A DNA stretch of 12,935 nucleotides, taken from the IMG/VR virus record IMGVR_UViG_2579779007_000003; one strand, written 5' to 3'. The notes below the pieces were generated by a model that was given only the letters and a program-made list of their open reading frames with translations, did not search any database and had not been told where the DNA came from. Source of the stretch: a virus. Lineage: Duplodnaviria; Heunggongvirae; Uroviricota; Caudoviricetes. Positions 2,224-12,765 of the stretch are shown here, in pieces (positions within the stretch are counted from its first letter, which is position 1; every line of letters starts with the position of its first letter). The position numbers were made by a program, and so were the translations under genes.

Positions 2224-3349
2224 TACCGTCACGCTGCGAACGGATGGCAGGCTTTTTACCGGCTGGACGTCAGTCTCTGTCACCCGCTCGATTGAATCCG
2301 TAGCCGGATATTTTGAGCTGGGGGTGAACGTGCCACCGGGTACGGATTTATCCGGGCTGGCACCGGGGAAGGCGTTCACGCTGGAAATCGGGGGGCAGAT
2401 TGTCTGCACCGGTTATATCGATTCACGGCGACGCCAGATGACCGCTGACAGTATGAAAATCACTGTCGCCGGACGTGACAAAACGGCTGACCTGATTGAC
2501 TGTGCTGCCGTTTACAGTGGCGGACAGTGGAAAAACCGCACACTGGAGCAGATTGCGCGTGACCTGTGCGCCCCTTATGGCGTTACCGTTCGCTGGGAGC
2601 TTTCCGATAAGGAAAGTTCGGCAGTTTTTCCCGGCTTCACGCTGGACCATTCAGAAACCGTTTATGAGGCGCTGGTGCGTGCCTCCCGCGCACGCGGTGT
2701 ACTGATGACCAGCAATGCCGCCGGGGAGCTGGTATTCAGCCGGGCTGCCAGCACAGCCACTGATGAGCTGGTTCTCGGAGAAAATCTGCTGACACTGGAT
2801 TTTGAGGAAGACTTCCGCGACCGGTTCAGCGAATACACCGTCAAGGGGTATGCCCGCACAAATGGTGCTGAGGGTGATGATATTGATGCGAAAAGTATCG
2901 TCTCCCGGAAAGGGACCGCCACGGACAGTGATGTGACCCGTTACAGACCGATGATCATCATTGCTGACAGCAAAATTACGGCGAAGGATGCACAGGCCCG
3001 CGCCCTGCGTGAGCAGCGCCGCAGACTGGCAAAATCCATCACCTTTGAGGCAGAAATTGACGGATGGACACGCAAGGACGGGCAACTCTGGATGCCGAAC
3101 CTGCTGGTCACTATTGATGCCTCGAAATATGCCATCAAAACCACAGAATTACTGGTCAGCAAAGTCAACCTGATACTGAATGACCAGGACGGGCTGAAAA
3201 CCCGCGTCAGCCTTTCACCACGCGAAGGCTTTCTGGTGCCGGTTGAAAGTGACCGTAAAAACAAAAGTGACAATAACGGCGGTATTGATGCGCTGGTTGA
3301 AGATTATTATCGCAGACACCCGGAGAAAACGCCGCCGTGGAAAGAGTAA
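2216..3349 (+). CDS. P: Mu gpP-like tail/baseplate protein
   Basis: 377-aa ORF, translationally coupled to N by overlap. Position and size match the Mu P tail protein. Confidence 0.65.
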
Positions 3350-5980: not shown

Positions 5981-7197
5981 TGTTTTATATTGATAACGAC
6001 AGCGGCGTAACCGTCATGCCGCCCGTATCCGCCCAGCGTAGTGCTATCGTTCGCTGGTTTTCAGAAGGTGACGGGAATAATGTTATCACATGGCCCGGCA
6101 TGGACTGGTTTAATATTGTTCAGGCGGAGTTATTAAACACGCTGGAAGAAGCCGGTATTCAACCGGATAAAACAAAATTAAACCAGCTTGCACTGTCCAT
6201 TAAAGCCATTATGAGCAATAACGCGCTGCTGATAAAAAATAACCTCAGCGAAATTAAAATTGCCGGGGCATCAGCACAGCGTACAGCACGTGAAAATCTG
6301 GATATCTATGATGCCAGCCTGAACAAAAAAGGACTCGTTCAGCTAACCAGTGCCACTGACAGCCCCAGTGAAACGCTGGCAGCCACCGCAAAAGCGGTGA
6401 AAATTGCGATGGATAATGCCAATGCCCGTCTGGCAAAAGACCGGAACGGAGCAGATATTCCCAATAAGCCGCTATTTATCCAAAACCTCGGTTTACGAGA
6501 ACTCGGCACAAGCGGGGAGAAAATACCGTTACTCAGTACAGCGAATACCTGGACTAATCGACAAACATTCAGCGGTGGCCTTTCTGGGGAACTGTCCGGC
6601 AATGCCGCTACTGCAACAAAGCTGAAAACAGCACGAAAAATTGCTGGAGTTGGTTTTGATGGTTCTAGCGATATTTCAATTAGTGCCAAAAATGTCAATG
6701 CATTTGCACTCCGACAAACAGGTAATACTGTTAATGGTGATACATCCGTTGGATGGAATTGGGATAGTGGTGCATATAACGCCCTGATTGGTGGTGCATC
6801 TGCATTAATTCTTCACTTTAATATAAATGCTGGTAGCTGTCCTGCCGTACAATTCCGTGTGAATTATAAAAATGGTGGCATTTCCTACAGGTCGGCTCGT
6901 GATGGTTATGGGTTTGAATTAGGTTGGTCAGATTTCTATACCACGACACGAAAACCTTCAGCGGGAGATGTTGGTGCATATACTCAGGCAGAATGTAACT
7001 CAAGGTTTATTACAGGTATTCGCCTTGGCGGTCTGTCATCTGTTCAGACATGGAATGGTCCCGGCTGGTCTGACAGGTCAGGTTATGTCGTTACGGGTTC
7101 AGTTAACGGAAACCGTGATGAATTAATTGATACAACTCAGGCAAGGCCAATTCAGTATTGCATTAATGGGACGTGGTATAATGCGGGGAGTATTTAA
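5980..7197 (+). CDS. S: Tail fibre protein S (constant part Sc about 5980-6489 fused to variable part Sv 6490-7197 in the present orientation)
   Basis: 405-aa ORF. It contains the conserved tail-fibre motif KKGLVQLTSATDSPSETLAATAKAVK and ends in the INGTWYN C-terminal motif. The gix-like site at 6476-6501 lies inside it and encodes IQNLGL. Confidence 0.8.
   Translation: MFYIDNDSGVTVMPPVSAQRSAIVRWFSEGDGNNVITWPGMDWFNIVQAELLNTLEEAGIQPDKTKLNQLALSIKAIMSNNALLIKNNLSEIKIAGASAQRTARENLDIYDASLNKKGLVQLTSATDSPSETLAATAKAVKIAMDNANARLAKDRNGADIPNKPLFIQNLGLRELGTSGEKIPLLSTANTWTNRQTFSGGLSGELSGNAATATKLKTARKIAGVGFDGSSDISISAKNVNAFALRQTGNTVNGDTSVGWNWDSGAYNALIGGASALILHFNINAGSCPAVQFRVNYKNGGISYRSARDGYGFELGWSDFYTTTRKPSAGDVGAYTQAECNSRFITGIRLGGLSSVQTWNGPGWSDRSGYVVTGSVNGNRDELIDTTQARPIQYCINGTWYNAGSI
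6476..6501. other. gix-like recombination site, left (gixL)
   Basis: TTATCCAAAACCTCGGTTTACGAGAA, made of two 12-bp imperfect inverted half-sites around a 2-bp core (TC at 6488-6489). It is present in inverted orientation at 9530-9555, matching 23 of 26 positions. It resembles the Gin/Hin/Cin/Pin crossover-site family. Confidence 0.8.
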
Positions 7198-7199
7198 CG

Positions 7200-7733
7200 A
7201 TGATGCACTTAAAAAACATTACTGCTGGCAACCCTAAAACAAAAGAGCAATACCAGCTAACAAAGCAATTTAACATCAAATGGCTTTATTCAGATGATGG
7301 AAAAAACTGGTATGAGGAACAAAAGAATTTCCAGCCAGACACTTTGAAAATGGTCTATGACCATAACGGCGTTATTATTTGTATTGAAAAGGATGTTTCA
7401 GCAATTAATCCGGAAGGCGCAAGCGTCGTTGAATTACCTGATATTACAGCAAATCGCCGGGCTGATATTTCGGGTAAATGGATGTTCAAAGATGGCGTAG
7501 TGGTAAAGCGAACTTATACCGAGGAAGAGCAGAGGCAGCAGGCGGAAAATGAAAAGCAAAGCCTGCTACAGCTCGTCAGGGATAAAACCCAGCTATGGGA
7601 CTCACAGCTACGGCTGGGCATCATTTCCGACGAGAATAAACAAAAATTAACAGAGTGGATGCTCTTTGCGCAGAAAGTCGAATCTACAGACACTTCCAGC
7701 CTGCCAGTAACGTTTCCAGAACAACCAGAATGA
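7200..7733 (+). CDS. U: Tail fibre assembly protein U
   Basis: 177-aa ORF starting MMHLKNI, 2 bp after the S stop. It is paralogous to the - strand ORF at 7762-8289 over most of its length. Confidence 0.8.
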   Translation: MMHLKNITAGNPKTKEQYQLTKQFNIKWLYSDDGKNWYEEQKNFQPDTLKMVYDHNGVIICIEKDVSAINPEGASVVELPDITANRRADISGKWMFKDGVVVKRTYTEEEQRQQAENEKQSLLQLVRDKTQLWDSQLRLGIISDENKQKLTEWMLFAQKVESTDTSSLPVTFPEQPE

Positions 7734-7736
7734 AAC

Positions 7737-7766
7737 AAGGCCCGCTATCGGGCCTTAATTTTTATT
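7737..7766. terminator. Bidirectional intrinsic terminator between the convergent U and U' genes
   Basis: Hairpin AAGGCCCG-CTAT-CGGGCCTT (7737-7756) followed by AATTTTTATT, 3 bp after the U stop. On the - strand the same hairpin sits just after the U' stop (7762-7764). Confidence 0.6.
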
Positions 7767-8289
7767 CAGGCTTTTGTGGCCATTCAGGATTTGCCGTATC
7801 CACACGGCTGACCAGAACACTGTAGCGTTCCCATGACTCCAGTCGTGCGCGTTCCTCATCCGTCGCCATATTCAGCCTGACGGCGCGTTCCAGTGGCTGA
7901 ATAACGCTTTCTGCTTCGGAAAGTAACGCGGCCTTTTGTGATTCTGCCTGTTGTTGCTGTTCGTCTGCCGTATAAATCCGTTTAACCACAGCTCCATCCT
8001 TAAACATCCACTTTCCTGAATCATCAGCGCGGCGGTTGGCTGTAATATCTGGAACCTCAACGACGCTAAAACCTTCAGGGTTAAGCGTGGAGGCATCTTT
8101 AGTGATGGCGACAATAATATTATTTGCATCGTAAACAATCTTTATTGTGTCTGGCTGAAAGTTTTTCACTTCCTCATACCAGTTTTTTTCGTCCTCAGAG
8201 TAAAGCCAGATGACTCCGTGCTTCTTTGTTAACTCATACTGCTCCAGTGTTTTAGCATTACCCGCTTTTATATTCTTTAAGTGCATCAT
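7762..8289 (-). CDS. Tail fibre assembly protein U' (alternative, expressed after inversion)
   Basis: 175-aa ORF starting MMHLKNI on the - strand, paralogous to U with a divergent C-terminal half. It is located inside the invertible segment. Confidence 0.75.
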
Positions 8290-8290
8290 A

Positions 8291-9541
8291 TTAAACGCTC
8301 GCTACATTATACCAGGTGCCATTTATATACTTTTGAACGGGTCTGTAATAAACGCCAGCTATATTATCGGCAGAATTGGACCCTGTATCCTGAACATTTA
8401 TACCAGACAATACATGACCTGAAGGGCACTGGAAGTTCCATGTTTGCCAGTTGTTCACACCATAATATTGCTGTGAGCCAAGCCGAACATCTTTCACATA
8501 TCGGGAATCAATGTTACCCCAGTTGCTTGGTTGTATCTGACCGTTTACAGCAAATATCACCGAGTTATCTGTATTTCGCTGACTATAGAAATGCCAGCCT
8601 GAATCATCACCAAGCTCTGCAACAGTTGGTCTTGACGAATTTCCCCACAAGTTAAATGATGCATTACGGGCAGCGGTATTTGCACTTGAAAGTGTGAAGA
8701 ACTTACTTTCCCCAGCCTGAATACCCTTTAATGATCTTGCTGAACCATTTATAAAGCGGAATACATGCACACCATTAGCATAAGCATCCAGCACCCCATC
8801 ACCATTTTGTTTAAACCCGGTATCGTTATCTCCTAAAACTATTGAATTTCCACCCAGGGCATTAGCCGTTCCAATCCCCAGATTTCCGCTAAAAATGGCA
8901 TTAATACCGAATATTGAGTGAGAACAATAAAACCCTCGCCCATTGTTAAAATCCAGAATGGCTTGTGCGTTCGTGCTTTCTGTCGCGGGATTAGTTGCTC
9001 CCCACTTATATGTTGTTTGACCGACGGTATAATCCTGAGTTGGAACAATAACCGTTAGCCCTTCTTCAGCAGAAACCCGCACAGGAAAAGCCCTGCCTTC
9101 AACGTAAAAAACGCTGCATACATCATCTTCTTTAAGGCTTGTTACAATGGAGTGGATTGCGCGCTCATTAGTCTGATACGTCGAAAAATAACCTGCCGCA
9201 TATGAACCACGATCAGTCCAGCCACCAGGCATTACCATTCCATTGAATTCGCAGTTATTCATTTCGTAATTACCACCGGCAGATGTGGTCGTTATAATCA
9301 CTCTGGAAGCCAGCTCGCCAGTGCTGCCTGTGGAACGCTGGAAAATAACTGGATACCACTTTCCACCAACAGCATTAGACGGCGCGTTAAATACGTACTG
9401 CCGCATTCCTTTTTTCTTATCCACCTCGCCTTTGCTGTAAACATTAATGTTACTCAGGAAGCGATCCTTATCAGGAATATCCGCGCCGTTCTGGTTTTTT
9501 TGTAATGCGCCAGAAGCCTGATTTACCGTTTCCTGCAAACC
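8291..9541 (-). CDS. Alternative tail-fibre variable segment Sv' (no start of its own; becomes the 3' part of S after inversion)
   Basis: The - strand frame is open from the gixR core (9542-9543) to a stop at 8291-8293. It encodes IQNLGLQE at the gix site in the same phase as S and ends in [12 protein letters not shown]. Sc (509 nt) plus Sv' (1252 nt) gives 1761 nt, an in-frame 586-aa fusion. The six-frame ORF extending on to 9724 is antisense to gin and not coding. Confidence 0.7.
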
Positions 9542-10285: not shown

Positions 10286-10474
10286 ATGAAATCAATTCGC
10301 TGTAAAAACTGCAACAAACTGTTATTTAAGGCGGATTCCTTTGTTCACATTGAAATCAGGTGTCCGCGTTGCAAACGTCACATCATAATGCTGAATGCCT
10401 GCGAGCATCCCACGGAGAAACATTGTGGGAAAAGAGAAGAAATCACGCATTCTGACGAAACCGTGCGTTATTGA
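10286..10474 (+). CDS. com: Com, zinc-finger translational activator of mom
   Basis: 62-aa [38 protein letters not shown] with CxxC-(17)-CxxC zinc-binding spacing and a strong RBS. It is near-identical to Mu Com as I recall it, and is followed by the overlapping mom gene. Confidence 0.9.
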
Positions 10475-11132
10475 GTATGAAGGCCAGATTGTTGGCTATG
10501 GTTCAAAGGAGCTGCGCGTTGAAACCATATCCTGCTGGCTAGCCCGCACAATTATTCAGACAAAGCACTATTCCCGCCGTTTTGTGAATAACTCTTACCT
10601 TCACCTGGGGGTATTCAGCGGACGCGATCTGGTTGGCGTTCTCCAGTGGGGATATGCCCTTAACCCCAACTCAGGTCGTCGTGTCGTGCTTGAAACGGAT
10701 AACCGGGGCTATATGGAGTTGAACCGCATGTGGCTACACGACGACATGCCCCGCAACTCTGAATCACGGGCCATTAGCTACGCGCTGAAAGTTATCAGAT
10801 TACTGTATCCGTCAGTGGAGTGGGTTCAGTCCTTTGCTGACGAACGCTGCGGACGCGCAGGCGTTGTGTATCAGGCGTCGAATTTTGATTTTATTGGCAG
10901 CCATGAAAGCACGTTCTACGAGCTGGATGGTGAGTGGTATCACGAGATAACGATGAACGCGATTAAGCGAGGTGGACAACGAGGCGTGTATTTACGGGCT
11001 AATAAAGAGCGTGCCGTGGTGCACAAATTTAATCAGTATCGCTACATCAGATTCCTGAACAAGCGAGCAAGGAAGCGGCTAAATACCAAGCTATTTAGGG
11101 TTCAGCCGTACCCTAAAAGCACTCCCGATTAG
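10395..11132 (+). CDS. mom: Mom DNA-modification protein (adenine modification, anti-restriction)
   Basis: Longest ORF in this frame (245 aa), overlapping the 3' end of com and ending at TAG 11130-11132. The true start is uncertain: in-frame candidates are ATG 10395 and GTG 10425, and there is no in-frame ATG after the com stop. Assigned from the Gin-Com-Mom order and my recollection of Mu Mom. Confidence 0.8.
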
Positions 11133-11215
11133 TATCAAATAATTTTTCGTTGTGCCGTTTTGGGTGGTATCAAAAAAAATCCAAAACGGTATCAAATGAT
11201 TTTGCGCGCTTTATG
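11133..11215. other. Element terminus / junction region between the Mu-like segment and the lambdoid stf
   Basis: 83 bp between the mom stop and the stf divergence point. It contains three direct copies of GTATCAAA (11132-11139, 11167-11174, 11189-11196) and TTTTTCGTTGTGCCGTTTTG (11143-11162). I could not recognise canonical Mu R1/R2 transposase-binding sites here. Confidence 0.4.
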
Positions 11216-12754
11216 AACTATCCCTTTCTGTGCTGTCGTTGCATCCTGTGCGGTGTATTTCCCGTTAGCCAGGTCATACGCGGCCTTAACTGCTTTTGGC
11301 GTTGCCGCCAGTGACTCGGAAGTGCTGTTAGTCGCACTGCTGAGCTGTACTATCCCCTTTTTCGTCGTGCTCGCATCCTCAAGCGCCACGGCGGATGCAA
11401 TATCCTCTGCCCGTTTTGCCGCTGTCTCAGCGCGCGTTGCTGCGGATTCTGCCGTACTTTTGCTCTGTGCTGCCGCTGCCGCACTGCCAGCTGCCTCTGT
11501 CGCCTTCGTGGATGCTGTCGTGGCGCTGCCCTTCGCTGCTGACGCCTGTCTGGTCGCCTCATCTTTTGAAGCAGACGCCGATGATGCCGATGACGCCGCC
11601 GAACTGGCGGACGATGCGGCAGCCGTTTTTGAGGATTCTGCGTTGGTTTCCGACGCTTTCGCGTTCGTTTCGGATGTCTTCGCTGCGGAAGCAGACCTCG
11701 CTGCTGCGCTGGCCTGTTCAGTGGCTTCGCCAGCCTTCGTTGTGGCTGTTGAAGCGGATGATGCGGCGCTTTCTGCCGATTTTCCGGCGGCGGTGGCACT
11801 GGCTGAGGCCTGCCCGGCACTTGTTGACGCGGCACTGGCCGACGACACAGCCGCTGTTTTTGAGCCTGCTGCTGCGGAGGCACTCTGTGCTGCTGCCGTT
11901 TCAGAGGACTTGGCGTTTGTCTCAGACGTCTTTGCCGCCTTCGCGGAATTTCCTGCCGCCGTTGCCGAGGAAGCTGCACTACTGGCGCTTGATGATGCGT
12001 TCGTTTCTGATGATTTCGCCGCCTCTTTTGAGGCCGCCGCATCCCGGGCTGAGGTGGCAGCTTCTGACGCTTTCGTGGTCGCGGTGGATGCAGAAGTGGC
12101 TGCTGATTGTTGTGACGCTGCGGCATTCGTTTCTGACGTTTTCGCGGCACTGGCACTGGTAGCTGCCGCGCTTTTTGAGGACTCTGCAGCAGCAGCACTT
12201 TTCGATGCTTCACTGGCCTTTGTTGATGCCGTTCCTGCGCTGGAAGACGCTGACTGAGCCGACGACGCGGCCTGTCCGGCTGACGTGCTGGCTGCACGTG
12301 CTGAATCTGCAGCATCAGTCGCACGGGTTGCCGCCTCACTGGCAGATGTGCTGGCATCACTGGCTGACTTCTTTGCGGCTGCCGTGTTCTGTGCCACCAC
12401 GGACGCGTTACGCGCCACCTCTTCCACCATCAGTTCAAAACGACGCAGTGCCTCCGGACGGGCATCATCCTCCGTCATGGCACCGAGAAAATCATTCAGC
12501 GTACCGGGTTGAGAATCTTCATACACGGTGATGGTCCCGGCATGTGACGGCGGGAATCCTTCCACCAACAGAATAACGCTGTACTGACCGTACTCAACGT
12601 CCATGCTGTAACGCCCGGCTTCATCCGGATTTTCTGAGGCCAGCGTGTTCACCACCACAGTGGTACTGTTACGTTTTGCTTTCAGCTGGATTGTGCAGTT
12701 CTGTACCGGTTTTCCTGTGCCGTCTTTCAGTACACCTGAAATCTTTACTGCCAT
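11192..12754 (-). CDS. stf: Lambdoid side tail fibre protein Stf, N-terminal about 520 aa, truncated at the junction
   Basis: Starts at ATG 12752-12754 (MAVKISGVLKDGTGKPVQNCTIQLKA, the lambda Stf N-terminus) with GGGGTG upstream; the six-frame track begins 2 codons earlier at GTG. It has a long Ala/Ser/Thr-rich repeat region and the conserved KGIVQLSSATNSTSESLAATPKAVK motif. After a second QKGIV copy the frame reads HKARKII then stop (TGA at 11192-11194) instead of continuing the motif. Confidence 0.85.
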   Translation of the reverse strand: MAVKISGVLKDGTGKPVQNCTIQLKAKRNSTTVVVNTLASENPDEAGRYSMDVEYGQYSVILLVEGFPPSHAGTITVYEDSQPGTLNDFLGAMTEDDARPEALRRFELMVEEVARNASVVAQNTAAAKKSASDASTSASEAATRATDAADSARAASTSAGQAASSAQSASSSAGTASTKASEASKSAAAAESSKSAAATSASAAKTSETNAAASQQSAATSASTATTKASEAATSARDAAASKEAAKSSETNASSSASSAASSATAAGNSAKAAKTSETNAKSSETAAAQSASAAAGSKTAAVSSASAASTSAGQASASATAAGKSAESAASSASTATTKAGEATEQASAAARSASAAKTSETNAKASETNAESSKTAAASSASSAASSASSASASKDEATRQASAAKGSATTASTKATEAAGSAAAAAQSKSTAESAATRAETAAKRAEDIASAVALEDASTTKKGIVQLSSATNSTSESLAATPKAVKAAYDLANGKYTAQDATTAQKGIVHKARKII

Positions 12755-12765
12755 ATTCACCCCAC

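Follow-up and report, generated by a model that had tools for sequence, protein, structure and literature searches.

The right end of a Mu-like prophage carries putative Sp18-type transposase-binding sites

Positions 11130-11213 of the window, by which we mean the whole 12,935-bp stretch of DNA that was analysed, are very probably the functional attR of a transposable Mu-like prophage in which one transposition module has been exchanged for another and whose right end carries putative Sp18-type sites. The evidence lies in the position of the terminus, the mobility of the end and its 4-bp target duplications, the array at the left end, the replacement of both ends together with the transposase, and the conservation of the cores in a distant relative. 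Mu serves as the reference for replicative transposition, and this right end is a variant of that well-understood type of system, not a new kind of element.

Results

Three repeats follow mom

The mom gene (10395-11132, + strand), which was identified from the ORF list, has a D108-type C-terminus and is annotated as mom in relatives, is followed by 81 bp of prophage DNA. Across the whole window, GTATCAAA occurs exactly three times, always on the + strand (11132-11139, 11167-11174 and 11189-11196), with start-to-start spacings of 35 and 22 bp, as the initial annotation had reported. By chance, 0.48 copies would be expected in the window; at least three copies arose in 4/200 dinucleotide shuffles, and a Poisson estimate puts the chance of three copies inside 65 bp at about 5e-9. 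The annotation had given the segment as 83 bp at 11133-11215, which has the right location and is off by 1-2 bp, considering that the first copy starts at 11132 and the prophage terminates at 11213.

Each repeat forms the core of a putative transposase-binding site on the - strand: the terminus-proximal R1 (11187-11208, core at inward positions 18-25), R2 (11165-11186, core at inward positions 40-47) and the innermost R3 (11130-11151, core at inward positions 75-82), whose cores are 11189-11196, 11167-11174 and 11132-11139. The repeat unit is longer than 8 bp, as R3 and R1 are 71% identical across 35 nt. On the terminus side of the core, CG(A/C)AAAA is found in R1, R3 and the left-end site L3, and the consensus of nine sites is roughly AaattaTTTGATACtA. 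The R2 core lies 22 bp from the R1 core, which is the R1-R2 spacing of Mu (cores at 21 and 43), and the distance from the R1 core to the terminus equals that of L1 in related prophages (core at 18).

R3 required additional consideration. The mom stop codon, TAG, occupies 11130-11132, its G being the first base of the R3 core, and GTATCA, part of this core, also comes after mom in D108 without being an end site there, so R3 could be partly fortuitous. We nonetheless consider R3 a real site, as it equals site L1 from the left end of the JCKP02 prophage at 15/15 positions (AAATTATTTGATACT) and its position is kept in the Sp18-like phage Mu_JNE122137.

The prophage ends at position 11213, inside a tail-fibre gene

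The right terminus of the prophage, CTTTA-3', is located at 11209-11213 (+ strand). The window, 10 retrieved E. coli prophages, 3 Yersinia phages and 4 IMG/VR contigs all share the junction base, and the DNA that flanks it differs from one to the next; the conserved end always closes with …GCGCGCTTTA, and the DNA beyond it is unrelated. Among complete E. coli genomes, matches to the mom side halt at window 11213-11217, and matches to the tail-fibre side begin at 11214. Since the conserved sequence has the same end point in every case, we place the terminus at 11213. The terminal dinucleotide is TA, versus CA in Mu.

The adjoining TGAA (11214-11217, + strand) is the predicted right copy of a 4-bp target-site duplication, judging by the duplications in 9/9 intact related insertions (see below); the left junction, like the left end, falls beyond the window. 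From 11214 to 12760 (- strand), the target DNA is the N-terminal part of the side-tail-fibre gene of a lambdoid prophage, split by the Mu-like insertion: window 11214-11500 is 99% identical to uninterrupted copies elsewhere, which bear the annotation 'prophage tail fiber N-terminal domain-containing protein'. The open reading frame at 11192-12760 extends 22 nt into the Mu-like end before reaching a stop. The Mu-like prophage lies inside a gene of a lambdoid prophage and is a prophage within a prophage; Mu-like insertions in other prophages have been reported in STEC CC119 (PMC10132054).

The same end recurs at scattered sites with 4-bp target duplications

The last 94 nt of the prophage end were found in 12/5426 complete E. 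coli genomes at 94-100% identity, beside a different host gene each time, and the matching left end is present in the same 12 genomes. The window-type right end is also carried by the Yersinia phages vB_YpM_5, vB_YpM_6 and Tongde and by the 4 IMG/VR contigs. Nine E. coli insertions were treated as intact, meaning that their two flanks come from one locus. All nine have termini of the form 5'-TA…TA-3', and in all nine a 4-bp direct repeat surrounds 5'-TAT…TTA-3' (TAAG, AGTA, CGAA, GTGA, CGCG, TTAA, GATA, AGCC and TGTT). Predicted empty sites were built by fusing both flanks with one 4-bp copy, and those for mscM and ydcO were found in thousands of other genomes as a single ungapped match at 116/116 bases. 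A 5-bp duplication in which one base had changed was ruled out, as every insertion has the same first T and last A regardless of the target base.

The end is more conserved than mom: between strain TD225-C4 and the window, the last 94 nt are 97.9% identical and the last 314 nt are 91.7% identical. The Yersinia phages with this end were isolated as infectious particles (PMC10434027). In the vB_YpM_5 record, about 80 bp of unrelated DNA separate the right and left ends, an arrangement that would fit Mu-style packaging of host flanks.

There were some individual genomes that departed from this pattern. In E. coli FDAARGOS_1059, one flank comes from a gene for an SDR oxidoreductase and the other from a gene for an ABC-transporter permease, and they share no duplication, which suggests a prophage-mediated rearrangement. 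In E. coli WS1933D, the L1 core of the left end (L008, ~220) reads TTTGATGC, with one mismatch, in an insertion that is otherwise intact and is flanked by AGCC. The prophage of E. coli FDAARGOS_943 has the same ends, mom and a likewise annotated transposase of similar length on a different structural backbone, without gin and with head and tail genes that are differently annotated; from this genome, the end/transposase module seems to move between Mu-like backbones.

A matching array lies at the left end

Read inward from the terminus, the core TTTGATAC is found at 18, 40 and 75 in the right end of the window and, inverted, at 18, 122 and 164 in the left end of the JCKP02 prophage; in the A21 left end it is found at 18, 124 and 165. 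The left and right arrays each comprise three sites and are inverted to each other with Mu-like spacing. Elsewhere in the 36.9 kb of the JCKP02 prophage the core is found just once, at a position where Mu also has a copy. For comparison, the left end of Mu has RCGAAAR cores at 21, 126 and 166, and its right end has them at 21 and 43, plus an inverted one at 56. L1, L2, L3, R1 and R2 are offset from their Mu counterparts by only 2-4 bp; R3 has a different position and the opposite orientation.

A21 and Tongde carry the window-type right end at 100% and 97% identity together with a left end that is ~77% identical to the JCKP02 type, and all core positions are retained in both. In JCKP02, left-end positions ~28-80 (L001 2165-2215), between the foreign L1 and L2, are homologous to nt ~28-75 of the Mu left end and read CCGGGAGG…GATGGGAT; the segment is absent from the Sp18-like phage. 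The packaging signal of Mu maps to this stretch of its left end, so the segment may have been retained to match packaging genes of the Mu type.

Both ends and the transposase were replaced together

Between Mu nt 3227 (A codon ~634) and nt 36598, where mom ends, aligned segments of the JCKP02 prophage are 88-99% identical to Mu, the largest being 26.8 kb at 97.3%; short stretches of the early region do not align. The first 3.2 kb and the last ~97 bp show no alignment between the two. Besides the left end, the replaced left part contains an XRE-type repressor, ner and most of the transposase gene. The transposase and both ends were thus exchanged as a set, which would be expected if the ends are the binding sites of that transposase.

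The JCKP02 transposase (697 aa) is 25% identical to MuA, and its final 29 residues are identical. Its gene (L001 3339-5432) is chimeric: the product is of the Sp18 type up to residue ~665, and Mu sequence makes up the last 29 residues and all that lies downstream. The breakpoint is at A codon ~634, and the MuA tail and the downstream B gene are in a segment 99% identical to Mu. In MuA, this tail is part of domain IIIβ and contacts MuB and ClpX.

Both this transposase and MuA match PHROG 310 over their full length. In Pfam, the JCKP02 transposase has a Mu-transpos_C domain and a weak match to Mu Iα, with no DDE_2 or Iγ match; its core scores with rve/retroviral integrases, not with the DDE_2 of Mu. 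A Pfam scan of residues ~64-296 alone gave no match even at E=10, leaving Iβ/Iγ-like end-binding domains unsupported at the sequence level, and the matches in a PDB sequence search with the transposase were confined to the Iα domain of MuA and the cores of retroviral integrases, the MuA core being unmatched. Its closest relatives are those of vB_YpM_5 and vB_YpM_6 (99% identical) and of Mu-like phages inserted in Stx phages (80%), and further relatives are found in Tongde (58%), Kp4866-3 (56%), VW-6B (49%), SuMu and Mannheimia phage 3927AP2 (43%) and D3112-like phages (31%). The window stops short of the early region; every full-length relative examined encodes a MuA-family transposase and a Mu-type B.

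Core positions are conserved in an Sp18-like phage

The prophage Mu_JNE122137 (LC727895, L031 594-39930), which has been called Sp18-like (PMC10132054), encodes one of the transposases that are 80% identical (78% for the DNA of the gene). In the rest of its genome, the aligned parts are ~64-81% identical to the present lineage; against Mu the figure is ~63-75%, and homology to mom was not detected. It carries cores at 18/40/75 in the right end and at 18/113/165 in the left. When its right end is compared with the window-type end without gaps, 24/24 core positions are identical and 36/66 positions outside the cores are (~55%). As the right end is almost invariant in the close lineage, the comparative support comes mainly from this one distant relative. 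The depositors of LC727895 annotate a 4-bp 'duplication due to insertion' (AGAG), and this GenBank feature is the sole record of a 4-bp duplication that we found.

The Sp18-like prophages of Shiga-toxin-producing E. coli, as represented by Mu_JNE122137, share with the present lineage the core positions, the 4-bp duplication and the TA at the right end. They differ in the sequence outside the cores, in a left-end spacer without the Mu-like CCGGGAGG segment and in a left end that starts with TG instead of TA. TG on the left and TA on the right suggest that both CA and TA are acceptable to this clade of transposases. The Sp18-type right end was found in 215/5426 E. coli genomes, O157:H7 strains included. 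Taking an Sp18-type module to be defined by cores at 18/40/75, a 4-bp duplication and a transposase of at least ~58-80% identity, we found all of these features for the window-type end, the transposase being that of its relatives.

A transposase scan of a species-representative genome collection returned two loci only, with a third end type that has TTCAAGATAA repeats. In Shigella flexneri SFBU1023 and E. coli ECMA0423 (L021 and L022, ~1236-1420), the transposase is 81% identical and the left end (TATGACTAGG…) repeats TTCAAGATAA, not TTTGATAC, which suggests that recognition sequences turn over quickly in this transposase clade.

Comparison with Mu and other transposable phages

Like the attR of Mu and D108, the end described here is at the extreme right, just after mom, and has three repeated sites of which R1 and R2 are 22 bp apart. 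As in Mu, R1 is about 20 bp from the terminus, and the left end mirrors the arrangement with L1, a gap, L2 and L3. The likeness in sequence is limited to the last ~12 bp (window TGCGCGCTTTA versus Mu TGCGCCGCTTCA), and we found no support for the loose resemblance to the terminal 20 bp of Mu that had been proposed for 11143-11162. In the window, homology reaches as far as 11116 for Mu and 11146 for D108. Alignment to the Mu end (AF083977) bore out the earlier statement that the R1 and R2 of Mu are absent after mom, the Mu end reading as the annotation had given it, and the misfit to the MuA-site consensus (YMyNwRAARYRCGAAAR) was likewise borne out, the right end having a single RCGAAAR, at inward position 64, beside R3.

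The differences from Mu concern the core (TTTGATAC here versus RCGAAAR), R3 (direct at 75 versus inverted at 56), the termini (TA…TA versus TG…CA), the target duplication (4 bp versus 5 bp) and the cognate transposase, with its low identity to MuA. The end therefore lacks what defines canonical Mu/D108 (Muvirus mu), namely the consensus sites, the TG…CA termini and the 5-bp duplication. It does have the structural hallmarks of a Mu-type attachment end: a junction with varying flanks, a short duplication and paired inverted arrays.

The Yersinia phages vB_YpM_5, vB_YpM_6 and vB_YpM_Tongde (Muvirus; MT374853, MT374854 and MT591577) belong to the same lineage and show no real difference, with right ends 97-98% identical over mom and the terminus. 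Tongde combines its more distant transposase with an A21-type left end and the same right end. The initial annotation had held that its version of the Mu end or consensus would prove wrong for this lineage if the segment aligned cleanly with the right end of some known transposable phage. Such an alignment was found (97.8% with vB_YpM_5/6), and it means that this lineage has a different end, not that the Mu end was misstated. The paper on the Yersinia phages has nothing on the ends or on a transposase swap, and in the literature we found no description of these ends or of a 4-bp duplication in transposable phages.

SuMu and 3927AP2, whose transposases belong to the same branch, also have a short repeated motif near their ends; unlike here, the motif reads TTTTGCATAG, and TGTGGGG opens the left end. 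Transposable prophages of Leptospira have a TA dinucleotide at each end and make a 6-bp duplication, as phage B3 also does (PMC8705779); the Leptospira prophages differ in the length of this duplication and in their unrelated host phylum, and they are set beside the present lineage by description, not by sequence. A 5'-TGT is regarded as conserved in Mu-like phages, in work on Pseudomonas Mu-likes (PMC4378225).

Discussion

In the mechanism that we propose, the three GTATCAAA repeats would be the cores of three ~22-bp binding sites, R1, R2 and R3, for an Sp18-type transposase of the MuA family that is distantly related to MuA itself. By analogy with Mu, transposase subunits on R1-R3 and on the three inverted cores of the left end would pair the two ends, each end would be cut at the 3' A of its terminal TA, and both would be joined to the target with a 4-bp stagger.

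The other readings of this segment were weighed against the same evidence. It is improbable that the repeats bind another protein, or act as an RNA or DNA structure (in mom regulation or termination, or as a packaging signal), with their terminal position incidental. The overlap of the R3 core with the mom stop codon speaks for such a role, as does a perfect 9-bp inverted repeat (CCGTTTTGG at 11155-11163 and CCAAAACGG at 11181-11189) that brackets R2; however, a scan of 11133-11213 found no terminator-like or promoter-like site, the core recurs three times, inverted, at the far left end with just one more copy in the JCKP02 prophage, and its positions track the transposase sites of Mu and are kept in a phage without detectable mom homology. 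A decayed or rearranged Mu right end that is no longer functional, which the initial annotation had offered as an explanation, is rejected as still less probable. The unmatched R1 and R2 of Mu and a terminal TA in place of CA would agree with decay, but the same end is found at 12 independent E. coli insertion sites, with clean and intact 4-bp duplications, and in three viable phages, and it has been better conserved than mom.

The annotation had also raised a non-transposing phage with a Mu-type tail and mom module, to which a Mu-type gin can be added; the lack of a transposase gene in the window itself would favour this reading. We reject it as the least probable of all, given that the full-length relatives encode both a MuA-family transposase and B (the latter in the segment nearly identical to Mu), occupy scattered sites with target duplications and have a matching left end. 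The evidence instead supports the remaining proposal of the annotation, a Mu relative with divergent transposase-binding ends, the binding itself being a prediction from the arrangement of the sites.

Beyond the identity of this end as an attR, the lineage is probably a natural chimera of Mu, although we hold this with less confidence: an Sp18-type transposase and both of its ends would have replaced the MuA system, with Mu B and the 29-residue tail kept, so that a transposase of only 25% identity would be plugged, via this tail, into the target-capture and disassembly machinery of Mu. If so, the transpososome would cut TA-3' ends and join them with a 4-bp stagger, implying a different active-site spacing within a Mu-like L1-L3 / R1-R2 scaffold.

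The lineage offers a natural, viable swap of a transposase and both ends on a near-Mu backbone. It shows which parts must move as a set, namely the two ends, the repressor, ner and most of gene A, and which are able to stay Mu (B, the last 29 residues of A and the Mu-like segment in the left end). It also provides what would be a second recognition code, TTTGATAC, with TA termini and a 4-bp stagger, for comparison with the biochemistry of MuA. Prophage-boundary finders that seek TG…CA ends and 5-bp repeats would misplace ends of this kind.

Away from the right end, the G segment of the window is inverted relative to the Mu reference (region ~6497-9457): window 6699-8353 corresponds to Mu 34565-32910, inverted, at 89% identity, and ~1.1 kb beside gin in the same region is without any alignment to Mu.
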